DNA of 32,947 nt from Lachnospiraceae bacterium (lineage in GTDB: Bacteria; Bacillota; Clostridia; Lachnospirales; Lachnospiraceae): assembly GCA_045542475.1 (NCBI GenBank), contig JAZQLB010000156.1:1-32947 (forward strand), given 5' to 3'. Below are positions 6,232 through 23,820 of the stretch, one piece after another; the first letter of the stretch is position 1; each line of letters opens with the position of its first letter. The translations under genes were made by a program, and so were the position numbers. The notes below the pieces were generated by a model that saw only the letters and a list, made by a program, of their open reading frames with translations, was not told the origin of the DNA and made no database searches.

Positions 6232-6246
6232 TCCCTTATGTACCCA

Positions 6247-6285
6247 AGGTGTGACACAGCATTTTAGCTGTATCACACCTTTTTG
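6247..6285 (+). terminator. Rho-independent terminator after the trkAH-unknown-GT gene string
   Basis: 14-bp stem (6247-6260 / 6267-6280, one mismatch), 6-nt loop, then TTTT. Confidence 0.7.
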
Positions 6286-6321
6286 TAGGTTAATTACTCA
6301 ATCTTATTTGCACTGCTTTAA

Positions 6322-6531
6322 TTATCTGCAGTTAGAAGAATTACTTGCATTATTCTGGCTCTTGTTGTTTGAAGAGTTTGATGCATTACTTGCCTTGTTC
6401 TGACTCTTGTTGTTTGAAGAGTTTGATGAGTTATTTGCATTTGAAGCGTTGTTTGAATTGTTTGCATTTGATGCATTGTTTGATGAATTTGAAGTTGTGT
6501 TCTTGTAGTTGTCGTTAGCGTTATTATTCAT
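6322..6531 (-). CDS. Small Asn/Ser-rich low-complexity repeat protein (about 69 aa), function unknown
   Basis: ATG at 6531 with a purine-rich GGAAAGAAGGG stretch just upstream. Product: MNNNANDNYKNTTSNSSNNASNANNSNNASNANNSSNSSNNKSQNKASNASNSSNNKSQNNASNSSNCR. The coding call rests only on the open frame and RBS. Confidence 0.4.
   Translation of the reverse strand: MNNNANDNYKNTTSNSSNNASNANNSNNASNANNSSNSSNNKSQNKASNASNSSNNKSQNNASNSSNCR
6359..6428 (-). repeat. Tandem direct repeat inside the Asn/Ser-rich ORF
   Basis: The 25-nt string CTCTTGTTGTTTGAAGAGTTTGATG occurs at 6359-6383 and again at 6404-6428 (45-nt period). A second shorter repeat, TTTGCATTTGA, lies around 6434-6471 (27-nt period). Confidence 0.85.
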
Positions 6532-6702
6532 AATACCCTTCTTTCCGCGCATAAGCGCCAATTGATTAAAGCGGATTTCCGCTTTGTACAAAAATAGTAT
6601 GTGTAAGTTTCTTTTTTGTATTCCATAAAAGTAATGATATAATTTTGGAAATTGCACATAATATTGTTGAACTATTTTAAAAAAGAAAAAGAGGTAAGAA
6701 AT

Positions 6703-7620: not shown

Positions 7621-7713
7621 GCAGCTTCCTCCCTTCCATAGGTATACTATATCAGAGAAAATAATCCGCATACACATTAATCGTATTTCATAATATGACA
7701 AAAAAGGATTTTT

Positions 7714-8871
7714 TTATACATAGGCTTTATCAACAGTAATTACCACATAATAATTCTCGTTTATCCCAGAGGCTTTCTCCTGTATAAGCGAAATAACCCT
7801 TTCCTGCGGCAGCTTTACCTCATATGGCAGTACAATATCAAATATAAGGTTAGTACGTGTAGGTCCCTGTACCATCCTGAAATCATGAAGACTTATTCCC
7901 TCATGTATCTGTTTTACAGCCTCTGCCATCTTATTCTTAACCTCAATCACAATGGCATTGTCTGTTTCAATAGGATCCATATGTATAACAGCCTCACAGC
8001 CTAATTTATCCTTAAGCTCTCTTTCTATTATATCTATCTCATCATGAATAAGATAGATATTAATATCTCCCGGCACCTCGGCATGGAGGGAAATCATAAC
8101 CCTTCCCGGTCCATAATTATGAACCACCAAATCATGTATGCCAGTTACCATGTCATGTGCCATAACCAGCTGCTCTATCTCTTCGACAAATTCCTTTTTC
8201 GGCGGTGTTCCCAAAAGCGGGTCTATGGTATCCTTCGCAGCATTATATCCTGCATACAGAATAAACAACGCAACTACACTTCCGCATATTCCATCCACAT
8301 TAATTCCCCAGAATCGTAACGCAAACATTGAAATAAGAACAACCAGAGTTGCCACCGAATCACTAAAGCTGTCAACGGCTGTTGCCCTCATGGCAGCTGA
8401 ATCAATTCTTTTACCTATTCTGCTATTATAAAAGCACATATACAGCTTAACACAAATAGCTATAACTAAAATAACCATCGAAAGCGTACTGCCATCCACC
8501 GGTTCCGGTGATACAATTTTCATTATAGAGGATTGCAGCAGTTCCACTCCCATAAAAAGTATTACAATCGAAATAACAAAGCCTGAAATATATTCAAACC
8601 TGCCATGTCCAAAGGGATGCTCCGGGTCTGGCTTTTTCCCAGCAAACCAGAAACCTATTAATGTAATAAAAGAAGAACCGGCATCTGACAGATTGTTAAA
8701 AGCATCTGCAGTTATTGCAATGGAACCACTTATTACTCCCGCAAAATATTTTCCAGCAAAAAGCAGAATATTAAGCAATATTCCCAACATACTGCAAAGT
8801 GTTCCATATGCTTTTCTTACTATCCTTTCATCCTTCTCCTTAATGAATATCTTTGATAATAATGTTATCAT
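7714..8871 (-). CDS. Cation diffusion facilitator (CDF) family divalent metal efflux transporter
   Basis: 385 aa with six N-terminal TM helices, HPFGHGRFE after TM2-3, and a C-terminal cytoplasmic domain. Confidence 0.88.
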   Translation of the reverse strand: MITLLSKIFIKEKDERIVRKAYGTLCSMLGILLNILLFAGKYFAGVISGSIAITADAFNNLSDAGSSFITLIGFWFAGKKPDPEHPFGHGRFEYISGFVISIVILFMGVELLQSSIMKIVSPEPVDGSTLSMVILVIAICVKLYMCFYNSRIGKRIDSAAMRATAVDSFSDSVATLVVLISMFALRFWGINVDGICGSVVALFILYAGYNAAKDTIDPLLGTPPKKEFVEEIEQLVMAHDMVTGIHDLVVHNYGPGRVMISLHAEVPGDINIYLIHDEIDIIERELKDKLGCEAVIHMDPIETDNAIVIEVKNKMAEAVKQIHEGISLHDFRMVQGPTRTNLIFDIVLPYEVKLPQERVISLIQEKASGINENYYVVITVDKAYV

Positions 8872-13285: not shown

Positions 13286-14353
13286 CTATTTAAGTATAGT
13301 TACATATTTTTCTGCACCCTGTGACAAATACACCTCATAATCCTCTGTCACAAAAACCGCATATATATCTTCAAGCCCATCTATATACTCCATGCCCTTA
13401 TCAAGTCCCATTACATAACATGCTGTACTTAAAGCATCCGCAGTCATAGACTCTTTCGCAATAATGGTTACTGATAAAAGCCCATTATCCACCGGCATTC
13501 CCGTTACTGAATCCAGTATATGATGGTAAAAAATATCATCCTGTATAAAATATCTCTGATAGCACCCCGATGTCACAAGAGACATATCCATAAGGCTAAC
13601 CCTTGCAATAATCTCTCCGCTTTCACTAAAAGGCTTCTGTATACCAAGGGCAAAATTCTTATTCTGCCCATCCTCTGACTTACCACCAATACATAGAATA
13701 TTGCCGCCCAAATCAATAATTGCACTCTTTACACCATTTTCCTGAAGGTATTCTTTAATTCTGTCAGCGATATAGCCCTTTGCAAATGCACCCAAATCAA
13801 TTATCGCTCCACCAGTATTAATGTAATTATCCTCTTCAAAGCTTATATTTCTATAATCAACATTTTTTAGCACATTGTCAAGCTCTTCTTGTGTTGGAAG
13901 CTTATATGGCGGCGTTACAAATTCCCAACTGCCGCTTAGCGCACCCACTGCCACGTTAACAGCTCCATTAGTCTGCTCGCTCCAACAATATGCCATATTA
14001 ATAAGCTCATACAAATTATCGCTTACCTGCATATGCCCGCTTTTATTAAGCTTATATAATTCACTTTTCTCCTCAGTCCTGCTAAAAAGAAGCTCATATT
14101 CATTGCAAAGCGCTATTGCCCCCTGTGCTTTTTCATAGGCTTCCTCCTCATCCATACCGTATATGGTAACGGTTACATAGGTGTTAAGTGAATAGCCCGA
14201 TACTGATACCTTGTTATTCGCTGCCTTGCAACCGCTAAGCCCCATAGCAACAAACACCAGCCCCATCAGAAACGCAGCTATAAATCTCTTTTTTATTCCA
14301 CATTCCCAGTCTGCACAGGTTCTGTTTCCACCATTTTTCAATCCGTTACTCAT
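13286..14353 (-). CDS. apbE: ApbE-family FAD:protein FMN transferase, lipoprotein
   Basis: Lipobox LSGC, plus ApbE-type blocks IDLGAFAKGYIADRI, IDLGGNI and TSGCYQRYF. Its start overlaps the upstream stop by 8 nt (ATGAGTAA). Confidence 0.85.
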   Translation of the reverse strand: MSNGLKNGGNRTCADWECGIKKRFIAAFLMGLVFVAMGLSGCKAANNKVSVSGYSLNTYVTVTIYGMDEEEAYEKAQGAIALCNEYELLFSRTEEKSELYKLNKSGHMQVSDNLYELINMAYCWSEQTNGAVNVAVGALSGSWEFVTPPYKLPTQEELDNVLKNVDYRNISFEEDNYINTGGAIIDLGAFAKGYIADRIKEYLQENGVKSAIIDLGGNILCIGGKSEDGQNKNFALGIQKPFSESGEIIARVSLMDMSLVTSGCYQRYFIQDDIFYHHILDSVTGMPVDNGLLSVTIIAKESMTADALSTACYVMGLDKGMEYIDGLEDIYAVFVTEDYEVYLSQGAEKYVTILK

Positions 14354-15026
14354 TATCTGCTCCCATCAAATCCACCTTTATGGCTCTGTCAATCCACTCC
14401 ATAGCCGTAACAATAAAATCCTTTGTTACATCAAGGGTGAATATCTTTGACTTTTCCACATCCGGTTTTGCTGACTCCTTAAAAAGCTTATCGTAAAAGT
14501 GAATCATTTCACAAGTCTCCGCCGCCGTAATCATACCCGGCATTTCAACCGCCTCCGTAGTAAGCAGCAGTTCAAACAGCTCCCTGCTCTCACCATAGCT
14601 GTGATACAGATAATTATCCATAGCAATGGCATCCTCTCTGTAAATCTTCATAAAATCAGCAAATTCCAGATTACTTTCATTAATTGCCGGTCCAAATATT
14701 TTAATACAATTAAAATCATCCGTCAGCATATGAATGGTGTAGCCCAGTATGTAATCCCGCTCCGTCCTATCCTTATTCTCATGATAAAACCTGCATATAT
14801 TCCTACGCCACTCCTCCACCTGCTCAGCAGTTCGTACATATCCCCAGCGGATGTGCTCAGGAAGAACATGACTGCGTTCCTTGTATGCAGGAGTATAAGC
14901 TTCACGCATATGTACTGCATCAGGAGCAAGACTTCCTAAAAGAAACTGTGCCTTGTTCTTAATATCTATATCAGTTTTTTTATAAAACTCATTCGCTATT
15001 ATCAGGTGTGTCATTAAGTAGGACAT
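14346..15026 (-). CDS. Zinc-dependent phospholipase C-like family protein (low-confidence family call)
   Basis: 226 aa. The N-terminal THLIIANE...GSLAPDAVH...SH pattern resembles the His/Asp metal ligands of the Zn_dep_PLPC fold. GAGG RBS. Confidence 0.5.
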   Translation of the reverse strand: MSYLMTHLIIANEFYKKTDIDIKNKAQFLLGSLAPDAVHMREAYTPAYKERSHVLPEHIRWGYVRTAEQVEEWRRNICRFYHENKDRTERDYILGYTIHMLTDDFNCIKIFGPAINESNLEFADFMKIYREDAIAMDNYLYHSYGESRELFELLLTTEAVEMPGMITAAETCEMIHFYDKLFKESAKPDVEKSKIFTLDVTKDFIVTAMEWIDRAIKVDLMGADNE

Positions 15027-15075
15027 ATTTTACCTCGTTTCATGCTATATGTTCATAATTCAAATTAGAGCTTTG

Positions 15076-16167
15076 TTACTCCCATTCGCTGATTTGCAAT
15101 TCCAGACCTGTCATTTCTTTAATCTCGCTCCTTGTAAAGTAATTAACATACCAGGTACTCATTGGAAGCTTTTCGCCATTTTCTATATAATAGTAACCTT
15201 CTTTATCGCCCTGATTCACTAAATAATCTACATTATCGTCCTCACCATATACATCCTCATACACATAGTCGCAAAAATCATGGGATATCTCGTATTCATT
15301 TCCATCCACTCCAACAAAGCTATATGCCCAACAGTCTCCTTCAACCTCAAATCCCTCTTTTATAAGTATCTCATAAAGAGCTCCATAGCTTATAACATAA
15401 CCATATTTGTTAGCACATAAATCATCATAAAATTCATATGTTCCATCTTCTCTCTGGATACTGATACATTTACTGTAACCCTTAAGTATCTGCACAAGCT
15501 CTTCATCAGTAAAATCTTCCAGCTGGTCCTCAAAGCGGTAGCTGAGACATACACAAGCATATGTACTCAATGCATCCTCATAATCCGCCTCTGTAATCTT
15601 CTCGGCATTTATATATATGTCTCCATCAGCAAGCTCATATTCACATTGATTTCTTAATATATTCTGATGCTCTAAAAGAACAGATATTGTTATATCATAA
15701 TCAGTATCCTCTACATATTCCGAAAAATCAATAAGCTCATCAAACAGTTTTCTTAACTCTTCTCTGCTTTCATACTCTCCAACCAGACGATAACAAGGCA
15801 TTCCCTTGTCCTCATACTCCTCCAGCTCAATATCAGCAAGTCCGTCATACTCACCAAAAAGCTTCTTTAAAATAACAGTTTCATAGTTATCTGACAAAGA
15901 ACTAACTTCAGCTACCTGCCCCACTGAATGGTAATCAATTACATTAAAAACTATTTCCTCCTCACCGTTTAAGGTAACTGTCCACAAATAGTCCGTATAG
16001 TTCTTTCCATTCTCAATCACTTTCGGAGACGAGCTTACCGTAACGTTGTCAAAGCCTAATTCCTCTTTCACATATTTTTTAACATCTGATTTGGTATGCT
16101 TCTTCGCACAGCCGCCAAGTAACATGCCACACATTACAATCAGCATTATAAATACTATTTTTTTCAT
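15076..16167 (-). CDS. Acidic lipoprotein, unknown function
   Basis: Start placed at 16167 (MKKIVFIMLIVMCGMLLGGCAKK, lipobox LGGC) with AAGGAG 7 nt upstream. The track start at 16206 would lie upstream of the predicted transcription start. Confidence 0.65.
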   Translation of the reverse strand: MKKIVFIMLIVMCGMLLGGCAKKHTKSDVKKYVKEELGFDNVTVSSSPKVIENGKNYTDYLWTVTLNGEEEIVFNVIDYHSVGQVAEVSSLSDNYETVILKKLFGEYDGLADIELEEYEDKGMPCYRLVGEYESREELRKLFDELIDFSEYVEDTDYDITISVLLEHQNILRNQCEYELADGDIYINAEKITEADYEDALSTYACVCLSYRFEDQLEDFTDEELVQILKGYSKCISIQREDGTYEFYDDLCANKYGYVISYGALYEILIKEGFEVEGDCWAYSFVGVDGNEYEISHDFCDYVYEDVYGEDDNVDYLVNQGDKEGYYYIENGEKLPMSTWYVNYFTRSEIKEMTGLELQISEWE

Positions 16168-16209
16168 TTTTATACTCCTTTTATCTTCCTTTTTTATAAT
16201 ATCCAAGTG

Positions 16210-16238
16210 ATTTTATCATATTTTTTAACAGTATTCAA
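16210..16238 (-). promoter_or_regulatory. Sigma-A-type promoter for the lipoprotein/ApbE block
   Basis: On the minus strand: TTGAAT (16233-16238), 17-nt spacer, TAAAAT (16210-16215). Confidence 0.5.
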
Positions 16239-16373
16239 CATTTCAAAGTTGACAAGCAAAATGGCAGAAAAACAAAAGTTTTTTACAGCTTACATAATAG
16301 TAATTTTCGCTTTTTCTTTCTCTTGTCGAGAAAAGCAAGCAACTTATTGAAAGTATTATTGTCAATTCACATA

Positions 16374-16402
16374 TTGACATAATTCGCTTTCTGTGTTATT
16401 AT
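16374..16402 (+). promoter_or_regulatory. Near-consensus sigma-A promoter upstream of the Rpn-type gene
   Basis: TTGACA (16374-16379), 17-nt spacer, TATTAT (16397-16402). This implies a leader of about 150 nt before the ATG at 16561. Confidence 0.6.
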
Positions 16403-16560
16403 GTTATTGTAATGTAAGTGAAAATAATCCACCTGTTATCTTTCAGGTCGTATCTTGGCTATTCGCCAATATTTTTTCACATTCTTAATTAAAATATTGG
16501 CAGGCTGATGAATAACTATATACTATAACCACATATGGTCTGCCGGAAAAGGAGTATTAT

Positions 16561-17433
16561 ATGATTAATGGCAAACCATTTGAAGAACTGGATTTACTTG
16601 ACGACTTTATGATTAACGCAGTAGTGGCAGACCCTGATGTGGGCGAGGCTTTTTGCAGGAAGCTGCTTTCCGTTCTTTTACAGCGAAGTATTGGGAAGCT
16701 GAACATTGTCGCACAAAGAATTATCCCTGCACCAACTCCCGGACTTCGAGGGATACGCATGGATGTGGAGATTACGGAATATTCAGACACAACGGAGACT
16801 GTACATAACATTTATGACCTTGAGCCACATTTGCAAAAAGATATGAATTTTCCAAGGCATAACCGCTTCTATCAGGCTAAGATAGACAGCCGCTACATGC
16901 ACAGTAGGGATAATGATTTTTCACATATGCCCAATCTGTATGTTATTACAATTACTAACTTTGATCCGTTTGGGCAGGATTATATGATGTATACTGTTAA
17001 TAACCAGTTCAATGAGGTTGATGAGCTTGAGTATGATGATGGGCTTAAGTTTATCTATTTTTATACAGGCGGGAGAAAGGGTGGTAATGAGGATATTAAG
17101 ATACTTTTGAAATATCTTCAGAATAGTACCATAGAGAATGCCACTAATGAAACTACAAAAGAAATTCATGAATATACCAGCAGAGTAAAGCTTATACCGG
17201 AGGTGAGGAAGGAATATATGAAATTTGAGGAATTGATGACGTATGCCAGACTTGAAGGACGTGATGATGGGCGTACTGATGCCATAATCGAACTTCTTTC
17301 TCTCCATGGTGAAGTTTCAACAGCACTGTACACACAGATAAAGTCTGAACGTAATTCTGCTACCTTACGCAGATGGCTTTTACTGGCTGCAAAGGTGGAA
17401 TCTATTGAGGAATTTGCTAATCAGATGATATAA
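16561..17433 (+). CDS. PD-(D/E)XK nuclease family transposase / Rpn-type recombination-promoting nuclease
   Basis: 290 aa with family-typical blocks LLDDFM, GIRMDVEI, IYDLEPH, RHNRFYQAKID and NFDPFGQDYMMY, plus a helical C-terminal tail. AAGGAG RBS. Confidence 0.8.
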   Translation: MINGKPFEELDLLDDFMINAVVADPDVGEAFCRKLLSVLLQRSIGKLNIVAQRIIPAPTPGLRGIRMDVEITEYSDTTETVHNIYDLEPHLQKDMNFPRHNRFYQAKIDSRYMHSRDNDFSHMPNLYVITITNFDPFGQDYMMYTVNNQFNEVDELEYDDGLKFIYFYTGGRKGGNEDIKILLKYLQNSTIENATNETTKEIHEYTSRVKLIPEVRKEYMKFEELMTYARLEGRDDGRTDAIIELLSLHGEVSTALYTQIKSERNSATLRRWLLLAAKVESIEEFANQMI

Positions 17434-17501
17434 TGGAAAATAAGTTAAGTCAGAAAAAAGCACTTAAATAATATTGCTCTCTCATAATATTTTATTTATA
17501 C

Positions 17502-17558
17502 AAAAAGGTATCGTTACTATTGTGATAACATATAGCCAATAGTAGCGATACCTTTTTT
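17502..17558. terminator. Bidirectional terminator between the convergent Rpn-type and HIT genes
   Basis: GGTATCGTTACTATT / AATAGTAGCGATACC 15-bp stem (one G-U/A-C position), flanked by AAAAA on the left and TTTTTT on the right. Confidence 0.8.
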
Positions 17559-17572
17559 CGTACTAATCCTAA

Positions 17573-17992
17573 TTATAACGCCGCCTTAATCTTCTCAATC
17601 ATCTCAGTATATTCTTCCTCACTAAGATACTTCTTATCCGGGTTCATAAGGAACACGCCACCCCACTCAAACTCATCCCTATACTTAGGTACAAGGTGGA
17701 AATGAAGATGATGACCTGTATCACCATAAGCACCATAATTAACCTTCTGTGGATTAAATACCTTCTGTAATGCAGCAGACACCTTAGCCACATCCTCAAA
17801 ATAAGCCGCTCTCTCCTGTGCAGTAAGCTCTGTCATATCACCAACATGCTTCTTATGAGCCAGAATAACTCTGCCTGGATGACTCTGCTCCTTAAATAAA
17901 TATACCTTACAGGTATCAAGCTCACATATCTTAATACCAAACTTGGCTACTAATTCGCCTTCCATGCAGTATGCACAATTATTATCTACCAT
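17573..17992 (-). CDS. HIT (histidine triad) family nucleotide hydrolase/transferase
   Basis: 139 aa from the ATG at 17992 (MVDNNCAYCMEGE...), with histidine triad GHHLHFHLVP. GGGAGG RBS. The 83-codon upstream extension in the track reads through a hairpin repeat and is rejected. Confidence 0.85.
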   Translation of the reverse strand: MVDNNCAYCMEGELVAKFGIKICELDTCKVYLFKEQSHPGRVILAHKKHVGDMTELTAQERAAYFEDVAKVSAALQKVFNPQKVNYGAYGDTGHHLHFHLVPKYRDEFEWGGVFLMNPDKKYLSEEEYTEMIEKIKAAL

Positions 17993-18026
17993 GATATCCT
18001 CCCGAAAAATAATATATTTCCTAATT

Positions 18027-18055
18027 ATTCTAATACTTATTATGGAGTATTTCAA
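18027..18055 (-). promoter_or_regulatory. Sigma-A-type promoter for the HIT gene
   Basis: On the minus strand: TTGAAA (18050-18055), 17-nt spacer, TAGAAT (18027-18032). Confidence 0.55.
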
Positions 18056-18107
18056 CCTTGAAAAAATGCATTTTATGGACAAAGTAATATAGAGAGTGGC
18101 GACCCTC

Positions 18108-18241
18108 GTGGTTGTGGGGGAGTACTGCGGAGGACACGTTCTCACTAAGTTGTTGCACGTAGCAGTACATAGGGCTGCAAAATACGCAGCCCAAGTACTC
18201 ACGGCACCAAAAAGTCCTCCGCAGTACTCCCCCACAACCAC
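18108..18241. repeat. Long-hairpin element, copy A (28-bp perfect arms around a 78-nt conserved interior)
   Basis: 18108-18135 GTGGTTGTGGGGGAGTACTGCGGAGGAC is the exact reverse complement of 18214-18241. Inner helices are AGTAC/GTACT (18164-18168 / 18195-18199) and GGGCTGC/GCAGCCC (18172-18178 / 18186-18192). Confidence 0.9.
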
Positions 18242-18319
18242 TTAAGGCTGCCGCTCGCTATAATGCTTCGCATTAAATAGCATTGCTTTTAACGCTTAAC
18301 TACAGCCCCCCGGATAGTG

Positions 18320-18347
18320 TTACATTAAAAAAGTATCAATATACAAT
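18320..18347 (+). promoter_or_regulatory. Candidate orphan promoter pointing into hairpin C and copy B
   Basis: TTACAT (18320-18325), 16-nt spacer, TACAAT (18342-18347). No ORF lies downstream. Confidence 0.3.
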
Positions 18348-18378
18348 TTCCAGCAGTATTATATTTACGCCATAACAG

Positions 18379-18419
18379 GTTTCGTCAGTAAAAAACGAAT
18401 GTTTTTTACGCCACGAAAC
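18379..18419. repeat. Hairpin C, AT-rich, abutting copy B
   Basis: GTTTCGT-CA-GTAAAAAAC-GAAT-GTTTTTTAC-GCC-ACGAAAC, giving a 9-bp inner plus 7-bp outer stem. TTTACGCCA is repeated at 18364-18372 and 18405-18413. Confidence 0.7.
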
Positions 18420-18420
18420 A

Positions 18421-18574
18421 GAAATCCCCGGGACGGGGCATAGTGTATTATGGAGGACTTTTTGATGCCGTCGGTACTTAAGCGGCGTTTTTTGCCGCTT
18501 TATGTACCGCTACGTGCAGCAACTTAGCGAGAGCGTGTCCTCCATAATACACTATGCCCCGTCCCGGGGATTTC
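18421..18574. repeat. Long-hairpin element, copy B (38-bp perfect arms around a 78-nt conserved interior), inverted relative to copy A
   Basis: 18421-18458 GAAATCCCCGGGACGGGGCATAGTGTATTATGGAGGAC is the exact reverse complement of 18537-18574. The reverse complement of interior 18459-18536 aligns without gaps to 18136-18213 at 64/78 identity. Confidence 0.9.
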
Positions 18575-18584
18575 GTCCGTGCCG

Positions 18585-18619
18585 AAAAAAATAGAAGGCT
18601 TTTTATTACAAGCCCTCTA
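18585..18619 (-). terminator. Rho-independent terminator of the GH105-GH112 operon
   Basis: On the minus strand: TAGAGGGCTT / AAGCCTTCTA 10-bp stem (one G-U that would be A-C on the plus strand), 8-nt loop, then UUUUUUU. Confidence 0.8.
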
Positions 18620-22074: not shown

Positions 22075-23820
22075 TTAGTTGTATCTAGATGTGAGACCAT
22101 CCTTAAGAGCCTGTAATCTCTGCTCAGCGATCTCAGCATAACCTGCATCCATGTAATCCTTAGCGTACTGCTCATATAAAGCATCGAAATCTTCTGGAGC
22201 ACACTCTGTTAATTCAACACGGTATACCTTGTAATCCTCGATTAACTCACCCTGGTAGTCTGTAGAAGCCTTGATTTCAGTAGCGAACATACAGTCAACT
22301 GGAACCCAGCCCTTCTCCCAACATGCTAACTGTGCATAGTAGTTGTCAATAAGAGCCTGTGTGAAATCCTGTGGTAAACCAACAGGAGCTGAAGCTGTGA
22401 TAAGGTCTTCGATTGTACCAGCAACTCTAGCCTCGATAGCTACACAGTAGTAATCCTTGTTACAGTTGTAACCCTGTGTATGCTCTGAACCTTCGTACTT
22501 AATAGCCTCTGGAAGTCCGTTAGCAGCAACCTGATAGTGCTCGCCTTCGATACCCCACTGCATCTGGAATAAGTTCTCTTCCTGAACCATCCACTCCATG
22601 TACATCCAAGCAGCCTTAAGCTCATCCTCAGTAGCCTGTGATGAGAATCCGATCATCATACCGAATGGGTTGTTTGAACGAAATGCAGGAGCTAAGCCTG
22701 TATCTGGGTCAACTGTTGTAGCCTGTGGAACAACTGCAAGCTCTGCATCTGGATTCTGCTCATAGAATGACTTTAATACTGCCATCTCTGGAGCAAAGTA
22801 TCCTGACCATGAATATGTCTGACCAGCGATAAACTGTGCCTCTGCATCTGAACCCTGTGTAATATCCCACTCTGGATTTGTGAATCCTAAGTTGTAATCC
22901 TCGTTAGCAACCTTAAGTAATAACTTGTTTGGCTCCCATCCTAATGAAGGAATGTTGTAGTCACCATACATACACCACTCTTCCTCGTTCATTGGGTATG
23001 TTCTGTAGCCGTAGTTCTGGTCAGCACCTACACCAGTGATCATAGAACCACCAGCTGGGTACTCTGCAATACCAGCTTCTTTAATCTTTGTCATAGCATC
23101 AACATACTCTGCACGAGATGCTGGAACATGGTCATAACCAACTGCTCTTAACCAGTCCATACGTACCCATGTAGCGAAACCATAGTTTGTGTTAGAGAAT
23201 GGTCTCTCAGCAAGAGCGAAGTAGCAATGTCCATCCATCTCTGTGTATGTAAGAAGGTTTAAGTCAACCATCTTCTGATAGTATGTAGGAGCTACCTGAG
23301 CAAATGCGTTAAGATCATACTCAGCTAAGTAACCATCAGCTGCCCACTGAGCCTGCTTTGGATAGTCATACTCCATAAGGATTGTAGGAAGATCCTCTGC
23401 TGCTGCTAATAAAGCATATGATGTTAAAACGTCTGAACGTGTGATTGGAACGAAATCAACTGTGATGTTGTACTTGTCACCGAAGTTCTCCTGAATCCAA
23501 CCTTCCCAATAGTTGTCACCTGTACCGATAGCTGGAACACCTTCTGCTCCTCTGTCGTACACTGGAATACTAAGTGTTACGTTATTCTCGAAAGCTGTCC
23601 AGCCTTCAATTCCTGCAACAACATCACCTGATGGAGCTGCTGTTGTCTCAGTTGTGCTGCCACCCTGTGGAGCTGCTGTTGTCTCAGTTGTGCTGCCGCC
23701 TGCCTGTGGTGCAGTTGTTGTTGTCTCATTACCAGCTTCCTTGTTACAGCCAGCTAATGAACCCATTACCATAACACCAGCAAGTGCGATAGCAGCTAAC
23801 TTCTGAAGATTTTTCTTCAT
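22075..23820 (-). CDS. Large extracellular solute-binding lipoprotein of a CUT1-type carbohydrate ABC transporter (LplA/YtcQ-like)
   Basis: Signal peptide with lipobox LAGC, a Thr/Ala/Gly-rich tether, and a 581-aa size class typical of oligosaccharide binders. AAGGAGG RBS. Confidence 0.85.
   Translation of the reverse strand: MKKNLQKLAAIALAGVMVMGSLAGCNKEAGNETTTTAPQAGGSTTETTAAPQGGSTTETTAAPSGDVVAGIEGWTAFENNVTLSIPVYDRGAEGVPAIGTGDNYWEGWIQENFGDKYNITVDFVPITRSDVLTSYALLAAAEDLPTILMEYDYPKQAQWAADGYLAEYDLNAFAQVAPTYYQKMVDLNLLTYTEMDGHCYFALAERPFSNTNYGFATWVRMDWLRAVGYDHVPASRAEYVDAMTKIKEAGIAEYPAGGSMITGVGADQNYGYRTYPMNEEEWCMYGDYNIPSLGWEPNKLLLKVANEDYNLGFTNPEWDITQGSDAEAQFIAGQTYSWSGYFAPEMAVLKSFYEQNPDAELAVVPQATTVDPDTGLAPAFRSNNPFGMMIGFSSQATEDELKAAWMYMEWMVQEENLFQMQWGIEGEHYQVAANGLPEAIKYEGSEHTQGYNCNKDYYCVAIEARVAGTIEDLITASAPVGLPQDFTQALIDNYYAQLACWEKGWVPVDCMFATEIKASTDYQGELIEDYKVYRVELTECAPEDFDALYEQYAKDYMDAGYAEIAEQRLQALKDGLTSRYN
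23632..23703 (-). repeat. 36-nt tandem duplication in the lipoprotein tether (GGSTTETTAAPQ x2)
   Basis: TGGAGCTGCTGTTGTCTCAGTTGTGCTGCC occurs at 23632-23661 and again at 23668-23697. Confidence 0.9.

Follow-up and report, generated by a model that had tools for sequence, protein, structure and literature searches.

Two homologous hairpins in one intergenic region

The window analysed here, a whole stretch of 32,947 nt from a Lachnospiraceae bacterium (contig JAZQLB010000156.1 of assembly GCA_045542475.1), contains two long hairpins, copies A and B, in the intergenic region between a gene for a HIT protein and one for lacto-N-biose phosphorylase; they and the family to which they belong are the subject of this work. 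Pfam shows the window to be an ordinary Clostridia-type bacterial chromosome that also encodes TrkAH, LicD, a cation-efflux protein, trigger factor, an AAA ATPase, ApbE, a sugar ABC transporter, GH88, Fur and rubrerythrin, and a reading of the window as phage, considered for its low guanine-plus-cytosine content and one-strand gene order, was dropped on this ground. No transposase, recombinase, reverse transcriptase (no RVT domain), nuclease or cas-like gene was found among the scanned open reading frames (ORFs) of the window. The hairpin pair sits between the phosphorylase terminator and the HIT promoter, and no ORF of at least 60 aa both starts and ends inside 18108-18574; the listed ORF 17573..18241 (minus strand) is an upstream extension of the HIT frame over copy A and is read as non-coding there, since the HIT gene starts at 17992. 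The features of the locus are as follows.

18108..18241, putative folding strand minus: copy A, complete perfect hairpin of a 28-bp stem and a 78-nt core (covariance model, 91.3 bits, E=1e-27)
18108..18135, no strand: outer-stem arm of copy A, 28/28 with 18214-18241, unique in the window (repeat search)
18214..18241, no strand: partner arm of copy A (repeat search)
18136..18213, minus strand: core of copy A, with mini-hairpin GUGAGAAC (plus-strand 18138-18145; GAGA loop on the minus strand), rod and apical hairpin 18172-18192
18421..18574, putative folding strand plus: copy B, complete perfect hairpin of a 38-bp stem and a 78-nt core (covariance model, 103.4 bits, E=1e-31)
18421..18458, no strand: outer-stem arm of copy B, 38/38 with 18537-18574, with nested palindrome CCCCGGGACGGGG, unique in the window
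18537..18574, no strand: partner arm of copy B; T-rich ATTTCTGTTT follows on the minus strand
18459..18536, plus strand: core of copy B, with rod 18459-18522, apical hairpin 18480-18500 (loop GUUUUUU) and mini-hairpin GCGAGAGC 18527-18534 (GAGA loop)
18064..18100, no strand: degenerate outer arm of copy A, ~78% complementary to 18249-18285 (3/2000 shuffles score as high)
18249..18285, no strand: degenerate outer arm of copy A, partner side
18242..18420, no strand: 179-bp spacer between the head-to-head copies, with a promoter-like GTTACA-17-TACAAT at 18319-18347 (plus strand) and a hairpin at 18379-18420
18027..18055, minus strand: sigma-70-like promoter of the HIT gene, TTGAAA-17-TAGAAT (compared with relatives); context
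18586..18612, minus strand: intrinsic-terminator-like hairpin and T-run of the lacto-N-biose phosphorylase gene (direct reading); context, outside the element

A repeat search of the window confirmed the flawless pairing reported by a first-pass annotation of this DNA, at 38/38 for the arms of copy B and 28/28 for those of copy A, the two arms of each hairpin being 78 nt apart. The nested palindrome CCCCG-GGA-CGGGG in the arm of copy B was confirmed as well, and neither arm has a second occurrence within the window. Each hairpin has a folding energy between -83 and -89 kcal/mol and, relative to shuffles, a z-score between -11 and -13. An inverted match at 81%, 106 nt long (18122-18227 versus 18445-18550), covers the two 78-nt centres together with 14 nt of each stem, and the cores of A and B are thus homologous and in opposite orientation. 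The annotation had the arms sharing no similarity beyond ~16 nt, and direct reading of the sequence limits this to the outer 8 nt of A and the outer 14 nt of B, which are truly unrelated. The proximal 14 nt (GTACTGCGGAGGAC versus GTATTATGGAGGAC) are homologous and identical at 11/14 positions, all three differences being compensated in the opposite arm, and a GGGG(G/C)A block can be aligned farther out, given a 4-nt indel. Complementarity around copy A extends past the perfect stem into the degenerate outer arms listed above, indicating a unit longer than the one first delimited. The -35 element of the HIT promoter lies just outside the supported outer arm of A, and within a weaker extension of the complementarity only.

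A dispersed family shares the core

The two window copies belong to a family that became visible once the search pattern was reduced to unpaired and invariant positions in the apical part; this pattern matched two prophage contigs (L013/L014, IMG/VR). Among earlier patterns, CTAAGTTGYTGCACGTAGC and GGAGGACACGNTCTCNCTAAG had no match in viral contigs and CTAAGTTGNTGCACGTAGC none in genome contigs, TGCACGTAGCNGTACATA gave one chance match, and a junction pattern gave six chance matches in metagenomes. Generalised to CGTANNNGTACATAN{18,24}AAGTACNNACG and scanned over GTDB representative genomes, the core pattern retrieved at least 119 genome loci. A covariance model gave 111 matches in 100 loci and 25 more in a further 26 sources, a set that took in the loci of five relatives of the window (0 matches) and the prophage contigs L013/L014; on the window it matched copies A and B only.

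Nearly all of the matches listed are labelled Lachnospiraceae or unclassified Clostridiales/Bacillota. Carrier genera include Acetatifactor, Anaerocolumna, Anaerosporobacter, Mobilitalea, Butyribacter, Waltera, Eisenbergiella, Lacrimispora, Hungatella and Dorea, with isolates among them (Mobilitalea sibirica, Anaerocolumna sedimenticola with a complete genome, Butyribacter intestini, Waltera and Anaerosporobacter). Several genomes are multi-copy, with at least nine copies in the metagenome-assembled genome (MAG) PUUB56_bin.002, at least eight in SIG294 and three to four on separate contigs in several other MAGs; for the window's own genome, the 33 kb analysed contain two. Many matches fall at contig ends, as is usual for repeats. 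The same architecture in more than 100 independent assemblies, isolates included, excludes an assembly artefact such as a fold-back chimera, which the first-pass annotation had allowed for.

Rfam returned nothing at its gathering thresholds and only generic miRNA-hairpin models at E<=10. By blastn, the region had no match in the plasmid collection and, in the phage collection, matched only through the HIT gene and two weak core matches at E<=1; an S1 element (see below) had no match in either collection. Nothing relevant to the family was found in the literature searched. The family thus appears to be missing from Rfam and from that literature, while the bacterial MITE or fold-back kind of element (MITE, miniature inverted-repeat transposable element) is itself already known.

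Some copies lie in less usual settings. Prophage-like contigs with core copies are L013/L014 from IMG/VR and MT839589.1 and MT838426.1 from the phage collection, the copy in L014 being placed between tail-terminator and tail-sheath genes. Typical copies also occur on contigs binned as Bacteroides, Bacteroidales, Odoribacter or Gastranaerophilales (L040, L114, L059, L071, L021, L074, L132), which could reflect mis-binning or horizontal transfer.

The core is a covarying three-way junction

All copies have a common architecture, consisting of an outer helix P1, a short conserved single-stranded stretch, a variable lower helix, invariant helices, an apical hairpin and a mini-hairpin. The invariant helices are CGU/ACG and (C)GGUAC/GUACC(G), with a 2-nt bulge between them and a UU/UAU internal loop, and at the tip of the rod a 7-bp helix, free in sequence, carries a U-rich loop of 7 nt. 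Adjoining P1 is the mini-hairpin of 2 bp, whose two pairs co-vary and whose loop is GNRA, on the strand opposite the search pattern, in 110 of 118 distinct copies (GAAA 37, GAGA 36, GCAA 18, GGAA 7, GGGA 6, GCGA 5, GUAA 1). The presence of GNRA on one strand indicates a folding strand that is minus for A and plus for B, making the two a head-to-head pair. RNAalifold recovers a three-way junction of 24 pairs, 17 of them with compensated changes. Paired cells amount to 95.9% versus 75.0% in column shuffles, and the covariation score of 0.59 compares with 0.175 in shuffles, none of 500 of which reaches 0.59, and with 0.08-0.13 in slid-partner controls.

Strand asymmetry is also seen in the mismatches, G-U oppositions exceeding A-C oppositions on the GNRA strand (38 versus 15), and one position of P1 is U-G in 13/58 sequences, with a conserved U-G in 12/21 members of the S1-like alignment. 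The core carries fixed stop triplets, and consensus scans found no promoter or terminator conserved across the family. The central module of ~90 nt is under strong purifying selection, and the helices P1, lower P2 and P3 are free in sequence but must pair, which gives lineage-specific self-complementary arms. The core is far more constant than the arms, as the first-pass annotation had anticipated.

Known motifs did not account for the core. A group II intron domain 5, an 11-nt GAAA-tetraloop receptor, a k-turn and a loop E were each rejected on reading the sequence: CCUAAG is on the other strand from the GNRA loop, and an AGC triad is absent. A retron msr-msd was likewise rejected, the ORF next to the L014 copy being a phage tail sheath and the scanned ORFs of the window containing no RVT domain.

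Termini and target duplications of a probable mobile repeat

The elements span 128-344 bp between inverted-repeat ends and have no coding capacity. In an all-against-all comparison, similarity within a subfamily stops at the same two points, ~85 nt either side of the core. In the S1 alignment the elements end sharply, with TAGGCAATTGCGAAACTC ... GAGTTTCGCAATTRCCTA, and their flanks are unrelated. Terminal inverted repeats are seen in the S1 (TAGGCAATTGCGAAAC), S2 (GGATTCGGGTGTCAAAAGCCC, with a subterminal CGTCAATTTGCACAA block) and L120-type subfamilies, with TTACTGTTCACACCC as another terminus found outside S1 and S2. Direct repeats flank S1 elements in L037 (CTGCATTTTCA), L066 (TTCTGCCCAT), L089 (AACACTGTCTT) and L061 (TTATTCTCATTTACTT), and GTATCAATCC and ATCTTTTTT are found at element ends within the single genome PUUB56_bin.002. 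Flanking direct repeats of at least 8 bp occur at 11/106 elements versus 4/527 mismatched-flank controls, and the target duplications of the subfamilies measure 9-16 bp. S1 elements are 94-97% identical in three differently named species-level genomes (L037, L105, L122). The suspicion of the first-pass annotation that a process at the level of DNA was at work was therefore right in spirit, the family appearing to be a mobile repeat, with terminal inverted repeats and target-site duplications among its members and several copies per genome.

No recurrent partner protein or transposase cluster was found near the copies, the neighbours being generic (ABC transporters, histidine kinases, MatE); a recurrent neighbour protein was considered and dropped, only generic paralogous families having come up. 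Among the characters of MITEs, the family shows small size, lack of an ORF and dispersed multi-copy occurrence in unrelated contexts; a cognate autonomous element was not found in the ~1 Mb of loci fetched.

Two kinds of related arrangement were observed in passing. Core-less S1-type elements of 60-80 bp with the same termini occur at L061 3530-3650, L020 6290-6400, L033 880-960 and L037 4560-4790, and one copy has half of its core deleted; the short elements keep part of one arm only and appear to be internal-deletion derivatives. S2-type elements abut S1-type termini (…CCTA, element, TAGGCAATTGCGAAA…) in L020, L060, L068, L115 and L033, which suggests nested or end-targeted insertion between two kinds of repeat.

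Arm perfection is the tail of a distribution

The longest perfect arm run has a median of 13 bp among 109 copies, reaching at least 28 in seven and at least 38 in four, and the window copies rank third and seventh. The longest runs, 52 in L130 and 51 in L022 (76/78 paired), both exceed those of the window. Over the 30 bp of P1 nearest the core, pairing averages 86-89%, interrupted by wobble-type and other mismatches, and it drops with distance from the core; over the arm alignments there are 223 G-T and 229 A-C oppositions. The perfect 28- and 38-bp stems are thus the upper tail of the family distribution and by themselves are no sign of a copying mechanism. The argument from flawless pairing to templated copying, put forward in the first-pass annotation, is largely refuted, most other copies being imperfect and the arms being conserved within subfamilies in the manner of a plain MITE with terminal inverted repeats.

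Compensated substitutions separate the arms of different lineages. Such changes occur at 34 of 59 predicted pairs, arms and core together, in the S1-like alignment, and in PUUB56 a reading of the alignment distinguishes two arm classes that differ at ~1/3 of aligned positions, each still self-complementary, with cores that differ at few. These comparisons use direct alignments, which replaced an arm-identity metric whose random 95th percentile was 0.6. In some copies an arm unit is tandemly repeated on both sides of the core, with 2.9 x 56 bp versus 7.8 x 57 bp in L042 (7122-7806) and similar inverted arm arrays in L026 (844-1289, 2.2 versus 4.4 units) and L069 (1738-1863). Close pairs of copies 180-560 nt apart are head-to-head by GNRA strand (left minus, right plus), and comprise the window pair (18108-18574), L088 2990-3386, L016 4787-5560, L083 4536-4976, L120 1474-1971 and, as a weak match, L127 3430-3879. 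Tandem pairs were seen in L057, L055 and L119, and convergent pairs were not seen.

The orthologous region and other features of the window

Gene order is the same in the closest relatives found, whose phosphorylase is 87% identical, and their orthologous intergenic region is 235 bp (L002-L005) compared with 668 bp in the window. The core was not detected in L002-L006, either by the covariance model or by direct comparison of the orthologous region. Given this shorter, core-free region, the window pair is a lineage-specific insertion or expansion. The first-pass annotation had looked to this region for an empty site that keeps an uninterrupted palindrome; the region is indeed core-free and shorter, but in the relatives found it offers no empty site alignable base for base. 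Exact-protein look-ups of the HIT and phosphorylase proteins of the window returned no record.

Other observations concern the neighbourhood. Two inverted terminator-like hairpins flank copy B, namely the spacer hairpin 18379-18420 (GTTTCGT..AAAAAAC-gaat-GTTTTTT..ACGAAAC) and the phosphorylase terminator 18586-18612; their mutual similarity is not significant. A 21-bp hairpin at 17502-17557, 95% complementary and with A- and T-runs at its sides, separates the HIT gene from a convergent ORF (16561-17433, plus strand) and looks like a bidirectional terminator. The HIT and AAA-ATPase genes are separated by ~4.3 kb (13286-17572) containing ApbE, a Zn-phospholipase-C-like ORF and two ORFs without a family match, unlike in the closest relatives found, in which the AAA gene directly follows the HIT gene. 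A homologue of the HIT gene is present in a faecal contig labelled 'Bacteriophage sp.' (MT838159.1). Elsewhere, a 262-nt direct repeat at 74% identity (212-473 and 1150-1411) lies partly over a LicD-family ORF (491-1417) and its upstream sequence, and short tandem repeats of 27-45 nt (6330-6466 and 23625-23728) lie inside the minus-strand ORFs 6322-6657 and 22075-23820; both kinds of repeat are unrelated to the hairpins.

Interpretation

We consider it likely, with a probability of roughly 70%, that copies A and B represent, in old and diverged form, a family of fold-back, MITE-like elements of ~130-300 bp. Such an element would consist of terminal inverted repeats, long self-complementary arms and a ~90-nt module that folds on one strand, the module being a predicted three-way junction of P1, the rod P2-P3 and the GNRA-capped 2-bp mini-hairpin. 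Movement would occur in trans, through a transposase that would recognise the terminal repeats and cut the two strands in a staggered way. A lineage may be active only while its hairpin is intact, in which case young copies would be near-perfect and old ones would decay, and the window copies would be immobilised relics or domesticated copies.

Several observations weigh against this interpretation. The window copies have neither the termini of any known subfamily nor target duplications, and their status as transposed elements therefore rests on family membership. A transposase with matching ends was not found in the ~1 Mb of fetched loci, and the target duplications are 7 to 16 bp long, a spread not usually produced by a single DDE enzyme. 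The inner stems are flawless in both window copies, whereas the outer complementarity of copy A has decayed to ~78% and that of copy B is not significant (70/2000 shuffles score as high); the contrast between inner and outer parts is not predicted by uniform neutral decay and suggests in-place selection on the inner hairpin or homogenisation of the arms. The variable helix P3 is 99% Watson-Crick, with four G-U among 406 cells, fewer than in usual RNA helices, and 162 cells changed on both sides. The scarcity of G-U in variable helices fits, and leaves room for, a fold at the DNA level or templating from arm to arm. Finally, relative to the genes on both sides, the GNRA strand runs antisense 42 times and sense 22 times, a poor fit to simple read-through expression of an RNA.

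The alternative that survives best, which we hold as a tentative possibility, is that a templated DNA process keeps the arms Watson-Crick, through intrastrand template switching or mismatch correction in an extruded hairpin, that is, concerted evolution of a quasi-palindrome. In E. coli, the correction of such sequences by template switching is an established process. The idea that one arm is regenerated from the other, already raised in the first-pass annotation, would explain the few wobbles in the variable helices, and the P3 counts, the PUUB56 arm classes that remain paired around nearly identical cores, and the flawless inner stems beside outer flanks that are decayed in copy A and not significant in copy B all point the same way, as do the tandem arm units in L042, L026 and L069, which reveal slippage-type DNA processes acting on arms. 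Yet the many mismatched copies, in which G-T and A-C oppositions are about as numerous, imply that any such correction is inefficient after insertion, and the conserved U-G position in P1 would be erased by restoration to Watson-Crick pairs. Moreover, the perfection of young copies is already explained by selection among active master copies.

It is also conceivable, though doubtful, that the window hairpins are domesticated, divergent small-RNA genes driven from the 179-bp spacer, which need a long perfect stem, for instance for processing by RNase III, and for which mobility is irrelevant here. Their cores are near the top of the family by score (103 and 91 bits) although no terminal repeats or target duplications survive, and the perfect inner stems contrast with the decayed outer arm of copy A and the non-significant outer complementarity of copy B. 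Both the U-G bias and the GNRA loop suggest that only one strand folds, the head-to-head layout recurs in five other genomes (one of them by a weak match) with none convergent, and the promoter-like site in the spacer faces copy B. The absence of a promoter or terminator conserved across the family and a G-U content lower than in typical RNAs argue in the other direction, and the lineage is sampled by two copies from one genome. Nor does the mini-hairpin speak for RNA in particular: d(GCGAAAGC)-type mini-hairpins are a classic case of very high stability in single-stranded DNA.

A bolder proposal, which we regard as unlikely, is that the core acts as a single-strand fold, in RNA or in single-stranded DNA, and that the family is a new class of fold-back element whose arms are continually re-templated or replaced. 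The route could be a core that seeks hairpin tips or the copying of one arm from the other. Were this so, the elements would present ever-changing perfect hairpins, potential precursors of double-stranded RNA or sites of structure-specific recombination, and the head-to-head pairs and amplified arm units would be products of that mechanism.

Less probable again is that the core of ~85-90 nt alone is mobile and inserts at the apex of pre-existing palindromes, such as terminators or the centres of palindromic MITEs, the arms being host or carrier sequence. For this proposal of the first-pass annotation there is anecdotal support from two loci. The arms GGCTGTAAATAAAC / GTTTATTTACAGCC of the L025 element (1616-1723) equal the 14-bp stem of a core-less, terminator-like hairpin (7704-7750) 6 kb away on the same contig, but this hairpin may be either an empty palindrome or a deletion derivative. 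In L006, the stem of the orthologous phosphorylase terminator (6246-6290; ATCCCCGG ... CCGGGGAT and a T-run) equals the outermost 8 nt of the arm of copy B (18421-18432 / 18563-18574), which is followed by a T-rich tail; the ATCCCCGG match, however, is just 8 nt long and was noticed post hoc. The core does occur between at least three unrelated kinds of termini as well as in short-armed forms without recognisable termini, and in pairs with near-identical cores the similarity often ends exactly at the three-way junction (29 pairs at -24/+13). Even so, a k-mer search of ~1 Mb of loci found essentially no empty arms without a core besides L025, and the core-less S1-type elements, with part of one arm only, look like internal deletions. 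The target duplications, moreover, lie outside the arms and not at the core boundary, and the PUUB56 arm classes are homologous, related by compensated substitutions and not by replacement.

The first-pass annotation further suggested that the arms might serve a small invertible segment as its recombination sites, or that they store guide-like sequences as cargo. Both suggestions are highly improbable, and the bare anatomy is all that speaks for them: a short segment enclosed by perfect inverted repeats, with arms that vary from copy to copy. Genes for a recombinase, reverse transcriptase, nuclease or cas-like protein are absent from the window, and none is recurrent near other copies. Arms that differ between copies cannot serve one recombinase, and their differences are compensated substitutions of the ordinary kind. 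In the subfamily alignment all 21 members are colinear, and their cores face the same way with respect to asymmetric features of the arms. Searches with the arms matched nothing in the phage and plasmid collections, and neither arm recurs in the window.

Annotation of the family would clear up recurrent 'mystery hairpins' in Lachnospiraceae genomes, including those of cultured gut and environmental isolates, and its frequency at the ends of MAG contigs suggests that assemblies may break at the element. Should the fold function as RNA, a structured RNA would be travelling through the gut Firmicutes on a mobile element; should it function as folded DNA, it would point to a structure-dependent step in transposition. 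The family is also a natural system in which to ask how long palindromes stay perfect in bacterial genomes.

Relation to known systems

Compared with the structured RNAs in Rfam, the core has the level of covariation and the GNRA-capped helix typical of a curated motif, but no family reaches threshold. Integron attC sites resemble it in their paired boxes split by bulges, a variable, co-varying terminal stem-loop, near-exclusive Watson-Crick pairing and a single functional strand; they differ in that the present elements have no GTTRRRY box, integrase or cassette context and the outer stem is variable as well, and the target duplications and terminal repeats imply a chemistry different from that of attC. 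REP and REPIN sequences, with their RAYT proteins, are also extragenic palindromic hairpins, often in inverted pairs and with one strand apparently functional, and one subfamily here ends in GTAG...CTAC. REPINs, however, are not known to leave target duplications or to have a 90-nt conserved centre, whereas duplications of 9-16 bp are seen here and GTAG termini are confined to one subfamily; no RAYT or IS200-like gene was seen, although no genome-wide search for one was made.

The Foldback (FB) transposons of Drosophila and other eukaryotes share the long, variable inverted arms around a central loop and the unequal tandem sub-units of the kind seen in L042. The present family is bacterial, ten times smaller and built around a structured, conserved centre, with tandem sub-repeats in few subfamilies, and there is no evidence that the two are related. 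Bacterial MITEs with hairpin potential were also compared, namely the Correia elements of Neisseria, the pneumococcal RUP, BOX and SPRITE elements, enterobacterial ERIC and bcr1 of Bacillus cereus. No sequence similarity to these was seen, and Rfam, which holds several repeat-derived motifs, gives nothing. Like the present family, they are small, ORF-less and intergenic and occur in several copies, with terminal inverted repeats and target-site duplications, here seen in several subfamilies, and with a whole element that can fold into a stem-loop, lying in either orientation between ordinary genes. What sets the present family apart is that its centre, a 90-nt three-way junction with a GNRA cap, is its most conserved part and is common to subfamilies with unrelated termini, so that the usual MITE pattern is reversed, with the centre conserved and the arms free.

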